A DNA stretch of 64,000 nucleotides, from NCBI RefSeq assembly GCF_003790525.1, contig NZ_CP033635.1. One strand, 5' to 3'. Made by a program: the position numbers and the translations under genes. Origin of the DNA: Escherichia coli. Lineage in GTDB: Bacteria > Pseudomonadota > Gammaproteobacteria > Enterobacterales > Enterobacteriaceae. Shown in pieces: positions 5,711 to 62,884 of this stretch; position 1 is the stretch's first letter, and each line of letters begins with the position of its first letter. The notes beneath the pieces were generated by a model, which searched no databases, had not been told where the DNA came from, and saw only the letters and a program-made list of their open reading frames with translations.

Positions 5711-6484
5711 ATGATAAAACGGACGTTATTAGCGGCGGCCATTTTTAGCACATTGCCCGCTTATGCCGGGTTAACTTCCATTACCGCGGGCTACGATTTT
5801 ACCGATTATTCTGGCGATCATGGCAATCGTAATTTAGCGTATGCTGAACTGGTGGCGAAAGTTGAAAACGCAACGCTGCTTTTTAATCTTTCCCAGGGGC
5901 GTCGTGATTATGAAACTGAACATTTCAATGCCACTCGCGGTCAGGGTGCGGTCTGGTATAAATGGAATAACTGGCTGACAACCCGAACGGGTATTGCCTT
6001 TGCGGATAATACGCCGGTCTTTGCCCGCCAGGATTTTCGTCAGGATATTAACCTGGCACTGTTGCCAAAAACGCTTTTCACGACCGGTTATCGCTACACT
6101 AAATATTACGATGATGTCGAAGTCGATGCCTGGCAAGGCGGCGTATCCCTCTATACTGGCCCGGTGATCTCCAGCTACCGCTATACCCATTATGACTCCA
6201 GCGATGCAGGTGGTAGTTACAGCAATATGATTTCCGTGCGTCTGAATGACCCGCGCGGCACTGGTTATACGCAACTATGGCTAAGCCGCGGAACAGGCGC
6301 TTACACCTATGACTGGACGCCAGAAACACGCTACGGCAGCATGAAGAGCGTCAGTCTGCAACGTATTCAACCGCTGACTGAGCAACTTAATCTCGGGCTG
6401 ACGGCAGGTAAAGTGTGGTACGACACCCCAACCGATGATTATAACGGTCTGCAACTTGCAGCCCATCTGACCTGGAAATTCTGA
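5711..6484 (+). CDS. yaiO: outer-membrane beta-barrel protein
   Basis: Signal peptide MIKRTLLAAAIFSTLPAYA, alternating aromatic-rich strands, C-terminal TWKF; starts 2 nt after yaiX stop. Confidence 0.8.
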   Translation: MIKRTLLAAAIFSTLPAYAGLTSITAGYDFTDYSGDHGNRNLAYAELVAKVENATLLFNLSQGRRDYETEHFNATRGQGAVWYKWNNWLTTRTGIAFADNTPVFARQDFRQDINLALLPKTLFTTGYRYTKYYDDVEVDAWQGGVSLYTGPVISSYRYTHYDSSDAGGSYSNMISVRLNDPRGTGYTQLWLSRGTGAYTYDWTPETRYGSMKSVSLQRIQPLTEQLNLGLTAGKVWYDTPTDDYNGLQLAAHLTWKF

Positions 6485-6592
6485 TTGCTTCTGCCGCCCG
6501 CTATCCGGGGCGGCCTTCCCTGTCGATTAGGCCCCTCTTTCCTTTTTGTTATCCGACTACATTCACCGGATAAATTTTATTCTCCAGTGTTA

Positions 6593-6644
6593 TATACTAT
6601 AGGGGGGTATGCATTGACATATAGCATACCCCCCTATAGTATAT
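6593..6644 (+). promoter_or_regulatory. frmRAB promoter with large palindromic operator (FrmR/RcnR-type TACT-G6 ... C6-AGTA)
   Basis: TATACTATAGGGGGGTATGC-attgacatata-GCATACCCCCCTATAGTATA; 20-bp arms enclosing a TTGACA hexamer. Confidence 0.6.
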
Positions 6645-6668
6645 TGCGTGCAGATGATGAGGTGCGAA

Positions 6669-6944
6669 ATGCCCAGTACTCCGGAAGAGAAGAAAAAGGT
6701 CCTTACTCGAGTTCGTCGTATTCGGGGGCAAATTGATGCTCTGGAACGGTCGCTGGAGGGTGATGCCGAATGCCGTGCCATACTCCAACAGATCGCTGCC
6801 GTTCGGGGCGCGGCTAACGGGCTGATGGCAGAAGTGCTTGAAAGCCATATCCGGGAAACGTTTGACCGAAATGACTGCTACAGCCGCGAAGTCAGCCAAT
6901 CCGTTGACGACACTATTGAACTGGTTCGTGCCTATCTTAAATAG
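6669..6944 (+). CDS. frmR: formaldehyde-responsive transcriptional repressor (CsoR/RcnR family)
   Basis: 91-aa product [29 protein letters not shown]...; upstream of frmA. Confidence 0.85.
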
Positions 6945-6948
6945 CTGA

Positions 6949-8088
<1,140 letters not shown>

Positions 8089-8179: not shown

Positions 8180-9013
8180 ATGGAACTCATTGAAAAACAT
8201 GCCAGCTTTGGCGGCTGGCAAAATGTGTATCGGCATTATTCCCAATCACTGAAATGTGAAATGAATGTCGGCGTCTATCTCCCACCAAAAGCCGGGAATG
8301 AAAAATTACCGGTGCTGTACTGGCTTTCGGGCCTGACCTGCAACGAGCAGAATTTCATTACTAAATCGGGGATGCAGCGTTACGCGGCTGAGCACAACAT
8401 TATTGTTGTTGCGCCGGACACCAGTCCGCGAGGCAGTCATGTCGCAGATGCCGACCGTTACGATCTCGGGCAAGGTGCCGGGTTTTACCTGAACGCAACG
8501 CAAGCGCCGTGGAATGAACATTACAAAATGTATGATTATATCCACAACGAGCTGCCGGATTTAGTGATGCAACATTTTCCGGCAACGACCAGAAAGTCTA
8601 TCTCAGGTCATTCTATGGGCGGACTGGGCGCGCTGGTGCTGGCGTTACGTAATCCAGATGAATATGTCAGCGTCTCGGCATTTTCGCCCATTGTCTCCCC
8701 ATCGCAAGTACCGTGGGGACAGCAAGCCTTTGCCGCATATCTTGGTGAAAATAAAGAGGCCTGGTTGGATTACGATCCGGTGAGCCTTATTTCACAAGGT
8801 CAACGCGTTGCGGAAATCATGGTTGATCAGGGGTTGAGTGATGATTTTTACGCAGAACAGCTGCGGACTCCAAATCTTGAAAAGATCTGCCAGGAGATGA
8901 ATATCAAGACGTTAATCCGTTATCACGAGGGTTATGATCACAGCTATTATTTTGTCTCCAGTTTTATTGGCGAGCATATTGCGTACCACGCCAATAAACT
9001 GAATATGCGTTAA
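8180..9013 (+). CDS. frmB: S-formylglutathione hydrolase (esterase D family)
   Basis: 277 aa; GHSMGG nucleophile elbow. Confidence 0.9.
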   Translation: MELIEKHASFGGWQNVYRHYSQSLKCEMNVGVYLPPKAGNEKLPVLYWLSGLTCNEQNFITKSGMQRYAAEHNIIVVAPDTSPRGSHVADADRYDLGQGAGFYLNATQAPWNEHYKMYDYIHNELPDLVMQHFPATTRKSISGHSMGGLGALVLALRNPDEYVSVSAFSPIVSPSQVPWGQQAFAAYLGENKEAWLDYDPVSLISQGQRVAEIMVDQGLSDDFYAEQLRTPNLEKICQEMNIKTLIRYHEGYDHSYYFVSSFIGEHIAYHANKLNMR

Positions 9014-19667: not shown

Positions 19668-19697
19668 TTTACACTCTATGCGTCCGGCTCGTATGTT
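19668..19697 (+). promoter_or_regulatory. lacZYA promoter -35 (TTTACA) and -10 (TATGTT), 18-bp spacer
   Basis: tttacactctatgcgtccggctcgtatgtt. Confidence 0.85.
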
Positions 19698-19703
19698 GTG
19701 TGA

Positions 19704-22816
<3,113 letters not shown>

Positions 22817-52335: not shown

Positions 52336-53424
52336 TCAACCACCTGCTTTCATTACCCATTCAGAGATAAATTTATTACCCGGTACTGGCGGAGAGTACA
52401 AATAGCCCTGCAAAAAGTGAACTCCTTTGCCGATCATTAAATCCGCCTGCTCCTGGGTTTCTACCCCTTCCGCCACGATACTCAGACCAGGCTTACGCGC
52501 CAGTTCGACAATATTGTCCACAATATGACCGGATATTTCGTCCACGCTCGCCATTTGCACAAATGACTTATCGATCTTAATAAAATCGACCGGGAACGCC
52601 TGCAAGTAACGATAGGTCGCATAACCCGTACCAAAGTCATCCAGCGCAAAGGTAATGTTGTGCTGATGAAGGCTGTCAAATATCGCTCTGGCTTCTGGCG
52701 TTACCGGAATAGGGTTACGTTCCGTCAGCTCAAGAACCAGTTTGATTTTATCGTTACCTAATTTCTTAACCAGGTTCAGACACTCTTTTTCAAATCCTGC
52801 GGCCAAAAAACAACCCGCCGAGACGTTGATGCCAATATGGAAATTGTCCGGCAGCAAATGTTTTACCGGCATCAGAATATCCGCAGTCTGTTTCATCAAC
52901 TGGCGAGTCATTATGACGATAAGACCAGATGACTCCGCCAGAGGAATAAACTGATCCGGTGGGATAATTCCCGTTTGTGGATGTTCCCAGCGGACAAGCA
53001 CCTCACAGCCCGTCAGTACCCCAGTCTGCGCGCAGAAAACCGGTTGGATCCACGGTTTAAATTCATGGTTTTCCAACGCCAGACTGATGGCTTCAGGCGT
53101 GACGATATGGTGATAGTGATTATCATTAATATATTTGTGACTATTATTACCCGTGGCGGATATGATCTCCGGATTGTACTGAAAGAAAATATCCCGCCAG
53201 AAAGTAATATCGCTCTGAATCCCCAGTTTCTCAAAGAGCTGTTTCTTTTGATGTGAAATGGTCTTTGCACTGCGATTTCTGTACTGTGATATTTCTGTTA
53301 CAGACATTCCCTGCATCAGCAGCTTGAGTAGCAGTCGTTCTTTCTCGGATACGCTACCAGGCAATGACAAATGAACCGTTGTACCGAACTCTTGCAGAAA
53401 AACACGAAAATCACATGAATTCAT
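52336..53424 (-). CDS. pdeL: c-di-GMP phosphodiesterase with LuxR-type HTH and EAL domain
   Basis: ORF 52336-53430; LuxR HTH LSEKERLLLKLLMQGMSVTEISQYRNRSAKTISHQKK; EAL-domain motifs ELTE and DDFGTG. Confidence 0.85.
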   Translation of the reverse strand: MNSCDFRVFLQEFGTTVHLSLPGSVSEKERLLLKLLMQGMSVTEISQYRNRSAKTISHQKKQLFEKLGIQSDITFWRDIFFQYNPEIISATGNNSHKYINDNHYHHIVTPEAISLALENHEFKPWIQPVFCAQTGVLTGCEVLVRWEHPQTGIIPPDQFIPLAESSGLIVIMTRQLMKQTADILMPVKHLLPDNFHIGINVSAGCFLAAGFEKECLNLVKKLGNDKIKLVLELTERNPIPVTPEARAIFDSLHQHNITFALDDFGTGYATYRYLQAFPVDFIKIDKSFVQMASVDEISGHIVDNIVELARKPGLSIVAEGVETQEQADLMIGKGVHFLQGYLYSPPVPGNKFISEWVMKAGG

Positions 53425-58548: not shown

Positions 58549-60237
58549 TTGCAATTTGACTACATCATTATTGGTGCCGGCTCAGCCGGCAACGTCCTCG
58601 CTACCCGTCTGACTGAAGATCCGAACACAACCGTGCTGCTGCTTGAAGCAGGCGGCCCGGACTATCGCTTTGACTTCCGCACCCAGATGCCCGCCGCGCT
58701 GGCGTTCCCGCTACAGGGCAAACGCTACAACTGGGCCTATGAGACGGAACCCGAACCGTTTATGAACAACCGCCGCATGGAGTGCGGACGCGGCAAAGGT
58801 CTGGGCGGTTCATCGCTGATCAACGGCATGTGTTACATCCGTGGTAACGCGCTGGATCTCGATAACTGGGCGCAAGAACCCGGTCTGGAGAACTGGAGCT
58901 ACCTCGACTGTCTGCCCTACTACCGCAAGGCCGAGACTCGCGACGTGGGCGAGAACGACTACCACGGCGGCGACGGCCCGGTGAGCGTCACCACCTCCAA
59001 ACCCGGCGTCAATCCGCTGTTTGAAGCGATGATTGAAGCGGGCGTGCAGGCGGGCTACCCGCGCACGGACGATCTCAACGGCTATCAGCAAGAAGGTTTT
59101 GGCCCGATGGATCGCACCGTCACGCCGCATGGCCGTCGCGCCAGCACCGCGCGTGGCTATCTCGATCAGGCCAAATCGCGCTCTAACCTGACCATTCGTA
59201 CTCACGCCATGACCGATCACATCATTTTTGACGGCAAACGCGCGGTGGGCGTCGAGTGGCTGGAAGGCGACAGCACCATTCCGACCCGCGCGGCGGCGAA
59301 TAAAGAAGTGCTGTTATGTGCAGGCGCGATTGCTTCACCGCAGATCCTGCAACGCTCCGGCGTCGGCAACGCTGGACTGCTGGCGGAGTTTGATATTCCG
59401 CTGGTGCATGAATTACCTGGCGTCGGCGAAAATCTTCAGGATCACCTGGAGATGTATCTGCAATATGAGTGCAAAGAACCGGTTTCCCTCTACCCTGCCC
59501 TGCAGTGGTGGAATCAGCCGAAAATCGGTGCGGAGTGGCTGTTTGGCGGCACCGGCATTGGTGCCAGCAACCACTTTGAAGCAGGCGGATTTATTCGCAG
59601 CCGTGAGGAATTTGCGTGGCCGAATATTCAGTACCATTTCCTGCCAGTGGCGATTAACTATAACGGCTCGAACGCAGTGAAAGAGCACGGCTTCCAGTGC
59701 CACGTCGGATCGATGCGCTCGCCAAGCCGTGGGCATGTGCGGATTAAATCCCGCGCCCCGCACCAGCATCCAGCGATTCTGTTTAACTACATGTCGCACG
59801 AGCAGGACTGGCAGGAGTTCCGCGACGCAATTCGCATCACCCGGGAGATCATGCATCAACCGGCGCTGGATCAGTATCGTGGCCGCGAAATCAGCCCCGG
59901 TGTCGAATGCCAGACGGATGAGCAGCTCGATGAGTTTGTGCGTAATCACGCCGAAACCGCCTTCCACCCATGCGGTACGTGCAAAATGGGGTACGACGAG
60001 ATGTCCGTTGTGGATGGCGAAGGCCGCGTGCACGGGCTGGAAGGATTACGCGTAGTCGATGCGTCAATTATGCCGCAGATTATCACCGGCAATCTGAACG
60101 CCACGACGATTATGATTGGCGAGAAAATGGCGGATATGATTCGCGGGAAGGATGCGTTGCCGAGGAGCACGGCGGGATATTATGTGGCAAATGGGATGCC
60201 GGTGAGAGCGAAAAAAATGAGTCGTGATGTGAACTGA
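58549..60237 (+). CDS. betA: choline dehydrogenase (GMC oxidoreductase)
   Basis: Apparent TTG start giving (M)[20 protein letters not shown]; FAD-binding GxGxxG; GGAGG Shine-Dalgarno 7 nt upstream; C-terminal residues may differ from K-12. Confidence 0.85.
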
Positions 60238-60768
60238 CTCAGGAACCTATCAGATTGAGAGTTACCGTTCTACTATGAGGACCGAATCCTTATATAAAAC
60301 ACTGAGGTAACTCTCATGCTTCATATCCAGTATTCATGATGCTGGCTTTTTGCTGATATTTAACCCGAACATTCCTGATACAGACTATTAATTCATTTAT
60401 CTGCGGCAGATTTTATTTTCTGGATATATTATGAGTGAACAAATCAAACAGGATATCGATCTGATTGAGATTTTATTTTATCTGAAGAAAAAGGTAGATG
60501 AATACCAACAAAACTCTGGGCAGTAATAAACAGCATTCTGATAGAGAGTGCCTGTATAAAGCTGAAGTGACAATGACCGGGAAGGGAACCCGTTTTCAGG
60601 AATGGATGCCTGTCTTTTTCAATTTAAATATCCTGGCATTAGTAATGCCAGGATATTTACAGAAGAGCAGCATAACCATGACGGAACGGGGTTAAGTCAG
60701 GTTGTCCTAAACGCTATTTTCAACCTCGTATGCCTTCTTCAGGTTTATGTCCAGACTTCATATCTCTC

Positions 60769-61464
60769 TCAACAATCCTCAATAATCAGATACACCGCTT
60801 TCACCGGGCCATGAACTCCGACGACTTTGATAAGCTCAATATCCGCCGTTGAACTGGGGCCGCTAATGATGTTAATGCAGGAAGGCATTCGTTCACCGGC
60901 CTGCGCTTTCTGATGCAATTTTTCTGCGAGTTGCGCTACACGCGGCAGGATAGTGCTTTTACGCAGGATAAAAAGAGAAGATTCCGGGAGCAGGCTCAAT
61001 GAACGCCCGCGCCCGGCGGCGGAAAAAAGAACCACGCCTCCCGATTCGGTTAAACCATATTCAGCATATACGACGCCCACTTTAGCCTGCTCTGCTTGTG
61101 ATATGTTCTCAATACCTTTCGCCGGATCCCAAACAACGGCATTGCATTCCTGCTGCAAACGTTCGCTAATCCCCAATTCCTCCAGCCTCGTGTCACCGCT
61201 AATCACGATCGACTGATCTCCCAGCTCTTTACACAGACGTATTGCAGCTTCTGCGGCCTGCGCCTCGCTGGTCAGTTCACAGCGCGTCAACATAACATCG
61301 CTGGCAAACTGGATAAACGCGTCACAGCGCTGCTGTTGGTTAAGTTCGGTAAGCCGCTCGTTAGCATAGTTGTTAAGCGGCGCATCTTCTGCTTGCGGTT
61401 CAAGTCGCTGCGGGCGACCCAGTGCCTGAGCAACGTTATTCAAAAATTCGCTCCGATTATCCAT
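60769..61464 (-). CDS. ykgG: LutC-like (DUF162) protein
   Basis: ORF 60769-61611 trimmed to MDNRSEFLNNVAQALG (231 aa); 8-nt overlap with ykgF. Confidence 0.8.
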   Translation of the reverse strand: MDNRSEFLNNVAQALGRPQRLEPQAEDAPLNNYANERLTELNQQQRCDAFIQFASDVMLTRCELTSEAQAAEAAIRLCKELGDQSIVISGDTRLEELGISERLQQECNAVVWDPAKGIENISQAEQAKVGVVYAEYGLTESGGVVLFSAAGRGRSLSLLPESSLFILRKSTILPRVAQLAEKLHQKAQAGERMPSCINIISGPSSTADIELIKVVGVHGPVKAVYLIIEDC

Positions 61465-62884
61465 TCTTTTTCTCCTGCGCCTGATGTTTCTTAAACCAAC
61501 TACGGAAACTCTCTCCGTCAGCTTCAGGAAGATCGCGTGCTTCCATCCAGTCGCTAATCGCGCCAAATTTGAGTGGTGTTTTGCCGCCATTGATAAACCA
61601 GCTTGCCGCATGAGCGCCGGCCATCATCCCGACTTTCCACAATCCTGGATGACTATTGGCATAAGCGAACATTTTTATCGCCCGTTGCTCTGCTTTTGCG
61701 GTGATCCCTTTTTCAGCCATCACCCGACGATGACGCAAAATCAGTTTTGACAGCGGAATACGCACCGGACACACGCTGTCACAAGCGGTGCATAAAGAGC
61801 AGGCGTAGGGTAAATCTTTAAAATCTTTATAGCCGCCAAGTAGCGGAGAAATCACCGCACCAATTGGCCCTGGATAAATAGAGCCATATCCATGACCGCC
61901 AATATGGCGATATGCCGGACAAGTATTCATACAAGCCCCGCAGCGAATACAGCGCAGCACATCCCGAAATTCAGAGGCCAGCACCTCAGAACGCCCGTTA
62001 TCGACAATAACCAGATGAAACTCTTCAGGACCATCAACGTGCCCCGCTTCGCGCGGTCCTGTCAGCCAGGTGTTGTATCCCGTCAAACGTGCACCAACGG
62101 CACTGCGCGCCAGCATGGTGATCAATACATCTACCTCGGCAAACGTGGGGGCAATACGCTCCATTCCCATCACTGCAATATGCGTTTTAGGCAGCGTGGT
62201 ACACATTCGCGCATTACCTTCATTGGTCACCAGGCATACCGAACCGGTCTCTGCCACCGCGAAATTACAGCCGGTAATACCTATTTCAGCACTGAGGAAA
62301 TCTTCGCGGATTTTTTGCCGGATGAATAAGGTCATTGCTTCAGGCGTTTCCGACCCCTCATAGCCCAGACGTTCGTGTAGCACCCGACGGATCTGATGGC
62401 GATCTTTATGAATTGCCGGGACCACAACATGAGAGGGCGGATCTTGATCCAGCTGGAGAATGTATTCACCCAGATCGGTTTCAATCACCTGAATGCCAGC
62501 ATCCTGCAACACATGATTGACACCAATCTCTTCGGTCACCATCGATTTAGATTTCACCACCTTCCGGGCATTTTTGCGTTGGGCAACCTGTAAAATGTAG
62601 CGGGTAGCGTCTTCTTTGGTTTTTGCAAAATAGACGTGACCGCCGTTTTGCGTCACTTTTTCTGAGAGCTGGTACAGATAAGCGTCGAGATTACTCAGAA
62701 CATGATCACGTATCTGGGCGGCCCGATCGCGCCACTCCTCCCAGTGCCCCAATTCATCGACCATTTTTTGCCGATTTGCCCCGATACGCTGCTGCGCGTT
62801 TGCCACCGCTTTGCGCATGATCGGATCTTCAATTTGCTGACGGATGCGTGTCTTAAAATCTGTATTACTGGTTTTGATCGACAT
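61457..62884 (-). CDS. ykgF: LutB-like iron-sulfur protein
   Basis: 475 aa; two 4Fe-4S ferredoxin motifs CIRCGACMNTCP and CSLCTACDSVCP. Confidence 0.85.
   Translation of the reverse strand: MSIKTSNTDFKTRIRQQIEDPIMRKAVANAQQRIGANRQKMVDELGHWEEWRDRAAQIRDHVLSNLDAYLYQLSEKVTQNGGHVYFAKTKEDATRYILQVAQRKNARKVVKSKSMVTEEIGVNHVLQDAGIQVIETDLGEYILQLDQDPPSHVVVPAIHKDRHQIRRVLHERLGYEGSETPEAMTLFIRQKIREDFLSAEIGITGCNFAVAETGSVCLVTNEGNARMCTTLPKTHIAVMGMERIAPTFAEVDVLITMLARSAVGARLTGYNTWLTGPREAGHVDGPEEFHLVIVDNGRSEVLASEFRDVLRCIRCGACMNTCPAYRHIGGHGYGSIYPGPIGAVISPLLGGYKDFKDLPYACSLCTACDSVCPVRIPLSKLILRHRRVMAEKGITAKAEQRAIKMFAYANSHPGLWKVGMMAGAHAASWFINGGKTPLKFGAISDWMEARDLPEADGESFRSWFKKHQAQEKKNG

Follow-up and report, generated by a model that had tools for sequence, protein, structure and literature searches.

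FrmR is the formaldehyde-responsive repressor of Escherichia coli, and its operon, frmRAB, is driven by the promoter Pfrm. Denby et al. (2016; PMC5146963, Sci Rep 6:38879, Fig. 6a) described in K-12 Pfrm a large inverted repeat, centred near -29/-31, which they interpreted as tandem type I FrmR sites, that is, ATAC/GTAT repeats around 9-bp G/C-rich tracts. In their hands E. coli FrmR bound a PCR fragment of Pfrm with a Kd of ~220 nM, compared with 3,600 nM for control promoter DNA; formaldehyde speeded the dissociation of the protein from Pfrm, a reporter was induced 28-fold, and a stop mutation in frmR led to constitutive expression. Their model has two FrmR tetramers on the promoter, one on each unit. 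A study from 2024 (PMC11127321) equipped the constitutive promoter J23100 with a pair of ATACN9GTAT sites, the first upstream of -35 and the second overlapping -10; the resulting promoter was repressed in an FrmR-dependent way and could be induced 40-fold. The literature therefore shows that FrmR binds specifically, is released by formaldehyde and represses in vivo, and that its sites can be transferred. The same study also found that a truncated PfrmR that kept both sites and was deprived of its upstream DNA lost repression; the two units alone may be insufficient, with the flanking DNA contributing in a manner reminiscent of the wrapping reported for RcnR.

E. coli controls its detoxification of formaldehyde through this element, which is in practical use, both as a formaldehyde and methylglyoxal biosensor and in the engineering of E. 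coli for growth on methanol. Pfrm has reportedly been mapped at single-base resolution by Sort-Seq, in work by Rohlhill in 2017, the abstract of which is said to give two 19-bp repressor sites, one upstream of -35 and one overlapping -10. Such a layout would agree with the anatomy described below, and we exclude it from the evidence. That Sort-Seq mapping aside, the sources consulted contain no footprint and no operator point mutagenesis of the E. coli site.

One point of comparison with a characterised operator is the frmRA system of Salmonella Typhimurium (Osman et al., 2015, 2016), which likewise has a C6 tract within a T/A-rich inverted repeat. Here two FrmR tetramers bind per frmRA probe with a KDNA of ~1e-7 M, formaldehyde weakens binding, and the flanking repeat is needed, as mutation of one T/A repeat abolishes binding altogether; the E. 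coli and Salmonella frm promoters are aligned, with tracts and repeats marked, in Fig. 2D of that work. The Salmonella operator differs in possessing a single tract, although two tetramers bind to a probe of 33 bp, and its operon lacks frmB. Salmonella FrmR is ~52% identical to the E. coli protein, and the loci are polyphyletic. A second point of comparison is the DUF156 paralog RcnR, whose operator in the rcnR-rcnA intergenic region has the motif TACT-G6-N-AGTA (Iwig & Chivers, 2009, as cited by Denby et al., 2016) and also comprises two type I sites, with a G6-7 tract between short AT-rich inverted repeats.

We analysed a 64-kb stretch of E. coli DNA, hereafter the window, in which a reading made from the sequence alone had drawn attention to a palindrome upstream of frmR. 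This element is the published FrmR operator-promoter of frmRAB and is thus already known; its confirmation adds nothing new in principle. What the analysis does allow is a separation of those properties of the element that travel with frmR across the Proteobacteria from those that belong to certain lineages.

Anatomy of the operator-promoter

The inverted repeat spans 53 bp (6592-6644), with arms of 21 nt that are 100% complementary and an 11-nt spacer between them (Table 1). The sequence-only reading had reported two perfect 20-bp arms in an element of 52 bp; it was right about the perfection and slightly short on both lengths. With loops of up to 20 nt allowed, no other perfect inverted repeat in the window is as long. 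When the window was simulated 40 times with a first-order Markov model, the maximum arm length came to 9-16 nt, and the analytic expectation for arms of at least 21 nt is ~3e-7 per window: perfect arms of 21 nt are far beyond chance. For comparison, the perfect arms in the lac operator O1 region (19697-19731, TGTGTGAAATTGTGAGCGGATAACAATTTCACACA) extend over 13 nt.

Next in length among the perfect palindromes of the window is one at 60625-60659, with arms of 17 nt and a loop of 1 nt (TAAATATCCTGGCATTAGTAATGCCAGGATATTTA). It is intergenic, between a plus-strand open reading frame ending at 60237 and a minus-strand one at 60769-61611, with ykgG adjoining according to RefSeq, and may be a bidirectional terminator or an operator.

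Table 1. Features of the frmRAB operator-promoter region and the operon genes, in window coordinates.
Feature	Position	Strand	Sequence or length	Basis or remark
Whole inverted repeat, frmRAB operator-promoter core	6592..6644	.	53 bp	arm complementarity, chance test
Left arm	6592-6612		ATATACTATAGGGGGGTATGC	
Right arm	6624-6644		GCATACCCCCCTATAGTATAT	
Spacer between arms		 	11 nt, ATTGACATATA	
G6 tract	6602-6607			
C6 tract	6629-6634			
Distal FrmR unit site, ATAC-N9-GTAT, G6 tract	6594..6610	+	ATACTATAGGGGGGTAT	exact motif match
Proximal FrmR unit site, ATAC-N9-GTAT, C6 tract	6626..6642	+	ATACCCCCCTATAGTAT	exact motif match
-35 hexamer, in asymmetric spacer between units	6614..6619	+	TTGACA	perfect consensus; promoter scan; TTGAY kept in L001-L018
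-10 hexamer, inside proximal unit/right arm	6637..6642	+	TAGTAT	promoter scan, 17 nt after -35
Shine-Dalgarno	6659..6663	+	GAGGT	read from sequence; 5 nt (6664-6668) before frmR ATG
frmR, formaldehyde-responsive repressor, CsoR/RcnR (DUF156) family	6669..6944	+	91 aa	Pfam, NCBIfam, PDB match, RefSeq
frmA, glutathione-dependent formaldehyde dehydrogenase (class III alcohol dehydrogenase), second gene	6979..8088	+		ADH_N, ADH_zinc_N
frmB, S-formylglutathione hydrolase (esterase family), third gene	8180..9013	+		PF00756, E-value 5e-79

Each arm carries one six-base tract, G6 on the left and C6 on the right, and the arms surround a TTGACA hexamer that lies in the spacer, both as had been read from the sequence. 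The accompanying claim that TACT/AGTA flank the tracts applies to the outer side of each tract only, where TACT (6595-6598) and AGTA (6638-6641) stand 3 bp away; the inner flank is GTAT/ATAC. A description that fits both arms is ATAC-N9-GTAT, which has exactly two exact matches in the 64-kb window, one per arm, and no further site beyond them. The two units are in mirror orientation with their centres 32 bp apart, or about three helical turns of B-form DNA. A type I operator as defined by Denby et al. (2016) has a G/C tract of 3-8 bp between flanking repeats; it is expected in the promoter of an operon encoding, or controlled by, a DUF156 repressor. At this locus the tracts are G6 and C6, ATAC and GTAT enclose each of them, and 25 nt separate the palindrome from the start of frmR, after which come frmA and frmB.

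A scan of both strands from 6350 to 7050 gave a sole sigma-70-like match, TTGACA-17 nt-TAGTAT, which agrees with the consensus at 10 of 12 positions and thereby combines near-consensus hexamers with a spacer in the 16-18 nt range. Its -35 hexamer falls in the spacer of the palindrome and its -10 hexamer in the right arm, upstream of frmR and then frmA and frmB, in agreement with the proposal that the palindrome embeds the frmRAB promoter. The transcription start is predicted at ~6647 when taken from the "centred at -29" of Denby et al., and at ~6649 from the usual -10 spacing; those authors, too, write of a "predicted transcriptional start site" (PMC5146963). With a start near 6649, the distal unit would occupy about -55 to -39, ending 3 bp before the -35 hexamer, and the proximal unit about -23 to -7, covering the promoter spacer and the -10 hexamer.

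The protein encoded by frmR matches Pfam PF02583 with an E-value of 3e-23 and the NCBIfam FrmR equivalog NF008464 with 189.2 bits (cut-off 133), whereas it scores 68 bits against the RcnR model, below the cut-off of 138; among PDB structures it matches best to 5LBM, "Transcriptional repressor FrmR", in an alignment that covers residues 1-91. Its translation (N-terminus MPSTP...) shows both sensory residues, Pro2 and Cys35, together with His60. Moreover, of 5,426 complete E. coli genomes, 5,415 contain a match to the 221 bp surrounding the element, and their annotation names the flanking genes yaiO and frmR, the latter as "formaldehyde-responsive transcriptional repressor FrmR".

Taken with the published work on the same repeat, its formaldehyde-released binding (Denby et al., 2016), the transplantation of the sites (PMC11127321) and the position of frmR, this anatomy supports the earlier proposal of an FrmR operator. 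The 53-bp palindrome is very probably the E. coli frmRAB operator, formed by two mirror 17-bp FrmR units around a sigma-70 promoter. According to the published model an FrmR tetramer may sit on each unit in E. coli, whereas a 2:1 tetramer:DNA ratio was measured for Salmonella FrmR on a single-tract probe. Bound FrmR would keep RNA polymerase off the -35 and -10 hexamers, a steric occlusion that we infer from the position of the units. As FrmR represses frmR along with frmA and frmB, the system is autoregulated. Formaldehyde cross-links Pro2 of one FrmR subunit to Cys35 of another, and the cross-link reshapes the DNA-binding face, upon which FrmR comes off the DNA and transcription of the operon begins.

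The likeness to RcnR operators is one of type and not of exact motif. The sequence-only reading had matched the element to a TACT-G6-N-AGTA logic shared by RcnR/FrmR-family operators, and the geometry of a G/C tract between flanking repeats indeed holds. In the K-12 rcnR-rcnA intergenic region, the sites TACTGGGGGGTAGTA and TACTGGGGGGGAGTA are direct repeats 20 bp apart on the same strand (1209-1223 and 1229-1243 of locus L086), and the G tract directly abuts TACT, as in TACTGGGGGG(T/G)AGTA. The frm units TACTATAGGGGGGTA and TACCCCCCTATAGTA, on the other hand, agree with TACT-N7-AGTA with one mismatch each (TACT...GGTA and TACC...AGTA), their tract is offset inward (TACT-ATA-G6-GTA), and they stand as inverted copies at a distance of 32 bp with the -35 hexamer between them. 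Neither an exact TACT-N7-AGTA with abutting G6 nor a direct repeat at ~20 bp is thus found in the frm units, and an operator of the exact RcnR motif is ruled out by the mismatch in each unit and the inverted arrangement; ATAC-N9-GTAT fits better. The operator works like an RcnR-type type I operator without being an instance of the exact RcnR motif. The window does hold one exact TACT-N7-AGTA match, at 52384-52398 (TACTGGCGGAGAGTA), inside a 364-aa minus-strand open reading frame, which is most likely a chance occurrence.

Conservation of the units across frmR loci

For comparison across species, a scan with the FrmR protein, keeping one genome per species, gave 80 loci that range from Escherichia (100% identity) to alpha- and beta-proteobacteria (about 52-65%); in 76 of them a frmA homolog lies ~300 nt past the frmR start. 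Units were counted as ATAC-N9-GTAT containing a G or C run, with one mismatch allowed. By this count 79 units lie in the 13.6 kb upstream of frmR and 8 in the 393 kb of remaining locus DNA, an enrichment of ~285-fold.

The proximal unit stands 43-45 nt before the ATG from Escherichia through to Brucella and Ochrobactrum. The operators of the latter and of other Proteobacteria contain the same 17-bp unit, for instance ATACTCCCCCATAGTAT, 45 nt before the ATG and directly after TTGACA, with frmA downstream. They differ from the E. coli operator in that the unit is single and sits between -35 and -10, so that no large palindrome arises; as sites of FrmR binding they are putative. These single-unit operators come from the present analysis and not from the literature.

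In 15 of the 18 loci L001-L018 there is a distal unit with TTGAY 3 nt downstream of it; these loci belong to Escherichia, Pantoea, Edwardsiella, Enterobacter, Providencia, Aeromonas, Erwinia, Serratia and Morganella. In L006, L009 and L011 an ATAC-N10-GTAT variant was read by eye at the distal position. Deefgea has a distal unit as well, and TTGAY was not detected there. Across the two-unit loci the spacing of the units is 32 to 35 bp. The two-unit layout around -35 is accordingly a feature of Enterobacterales and Aeromonas, with a similar layout of two units in Deefgea.

The symmetry of the two units varies far more than their presence. Mirrored units show no mismatch in Escherichia other than E. 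albertii, and none in a cassette form common to an Edwardsiella plasmid, an Enterobacter sp. and Morganella; there is one mismatch in E. albertii and in Aeromonas, two to three in Providencia and four in Serratia, and in Erwinia endophytica (L016) the units are direct and not inverted. Since the units stay while the symmetry varies across lineages, what is conserved is the unit and its placement relative to the promoter hexamers, and not the perfection of the palindrome. Hence the size and perfection that had seemed so striking in the sequence-only reading are real as a length beyond chance in this window, whereas they are not the conserved property: perfect 21-nt symmetry belongs to certain lineages, namely Escherichia and one common frmRAB cassette form, and is no functional requirement. 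The 17-bp unit ATAC-N9-GTAT is the part that is conserved with frmR across the Proteobacteria.

The tract within the unit may consist of G or C on the same strand and at the same place, as in ATACT-GGGG-TATAGTAT of Deefgea (L022/L023) and of Actinobacillus metagenome-assembled genomes (L027/L029) compared with ATAC-CCCCCC-TATAGTAT of E. coli. This interchange hints that the protein may read the shape of the tract rather than the identity of its bases, and such tolerance is in line with shape readout as proposed in the literature (Denby et al., 2016; PMC5146963).

The wide occurrence of single units raises the question whether in E. coli, too, only the proximal unit works, the distal unit and with it the palindrome being a lineage-specific duplicate that adds little, for example slightly tighter repression or cooperativity. 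In alpha- and beta-proteobacterial, Xanthomonadales and Pasteurellaceae frmR loci the ATG is preceded at this same distance by one unit only, and the Salmonella operator manages with a single C6 tract. Yet the 3-nt offset of the distal unit from -35 is fixed in most of the two-unit loci of the Enterobacterales genera and Aeromonas given above, both units are rarely variant in sampled E. coli alleles, the published model has a tetramer on each unit (Denby et al., 2016), and the synthetic promoter that worked had both sites (PMC11127321). We consider it improbable that the distal unit adds little, although the notion retains a small probability in view of the many lineages in which one unit suffices. 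An operator of two working units is the reading that we carry forward.

Three of the loci have near-identical frmR upstream regions although they come from unrelated genera, once on a plasmid: Edwardsiella anguillarum plasmid 1, Enterobacter sp. and Morganella psychrotolerans (L008, L010 and L018). Their arms are 18-21 nt, the spacer is 17 nt and the tract is GTGGAG. The likeness suggests a mobile frmRAB cassette.

Alleles within E. coli and a flipped spacer

A 65-bp query around the element was found in 5,364 of 5,426 E. coli genomes, 3,281 of them identical to the window, at about one occurrence per genome (median 1, maximum 2) and always at frmR. In five E. coli alleles and four other Escherichia loci the differences fall at 6612, 6618, 6620, 6625 and 6648, all outside the units. 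One of them is a natural -35 variant in strain 1EC187, where a change at 6618 turns TTGACA into TTGAAA. The K-12 allele (RP437) is the same element at the same locus and has A in place of the C at 6625 and of the G at 6648 of the window, so that its perfect arms are 19 nt and its spacer 15 nt, with no functional difference in the units. Metagenome contigs agree with this picture. A few variants do fall inside the distal unit; among them a shortened distal tract, G5 in ATAC-N8-GTAT, occurs in three of 101 alleles, namely in the O145 strain RM12275-C1 and in two contigs.

One genome stands apart. In E. coli FJ_Ec_21 (NZ_CP143627.1, assembly GCF_036362825.1) the segment between the tracts (window 6608-6628) is the exact reverse complement of the K-12 allele. 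Both arms carry TAGTAT, and so the flip would give a TTGACA-17-TAGTAT promoter that faces away from frmR; with identical arms, each having its own TAGTAT, nothing but the 11-15 nt of asymmetric spacer decides which way the promoter points. One could imagine from this a promoter switch that needs no recombinase, in which hairpin-templated inversion of the spacer silences formaldehyde detoxification: if flips reached a useful frequency, Pfrm would fire away from frmRAB and detoxification would be off. Such a switch is very unlikely. The flipped spacer was seen in 1 of 5,426 E. coli genomes and in none of the metagenome contigs, against 93 normal ones, and these counts rule out the flip as a recurrent switch. 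The FJ_Ec_21 allele probably reflects either a hairpin-templated inversion, as a rare event, or an artefact of assembly, and not a switch.

Hairpin, terminator and mobile-element readings

Any inverted repeat of this length invites an explanation by secondary structure, either as a supercoiling-sensitive DNA cruciform or as an RNA hairpin serving to halt read-through from yaiO or to insulate against it, with no protein site involved. A single strand of the element does fold into a 21-bp stem of -21.5 kcal/mol, with a z-score of -7.4 against shuffles. Neither arm, however, is followed by a T-run (TGCGTGC on the plus strand, AACACTG on the minus strand), and the predicted transcription start is downstream of the palindrome, which places the palindrome outside the frm mRNA. 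Nor is the pairing conserved: the arms have up to four mismatches in Serratia, and the units are direct in Erwinia, while the units themselves are intact. A structural role in place of a protein site is highly doubtful on these grounds, and the FrmR operator remains the preferred reading.

An intrinsic (Rho-independent) terminator in particular is ruled out by the missing T-run and by a scan of both strands from 6350 to 7050 that gave no terminator-like site. A known RNA family is likewise ruled out, for no Rfam family came near its threshold and the only matches were generic-hairpin microRNA models at 20-27 bits, where the cut-offs are 73-139.

The palindrome might instead be left over from a mobile element (terminal inverted repeats, or REP-like) or be the site of some other regulator, next to frmR by coincidence; the mosaic DNA upstream of ~6566-6577 among E. 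coli strains and related frmRAB cassettes on plasmids speak for this. Even so, it is extremely improbable, as the element occurs about once per E. coli genome and always at frmR, the motif accompanies frmR in different classes of Proteobacteria regardless of the genes nearby, and the window has no other copies.

The mosaic itself concerns the yaiO-proximal part of the intergenic region (6480-6577). About 1,100 genomes align only from 6566 or from 6577 onwards, and the O145 strain has fbpC, instead of yaiO, as the next gene upstream. The conserved block begins 15-25 bp upstream of the palindrome, and its start may be related to the loss of repression in the truncated promoter without upstream DNA (PMC11127321).
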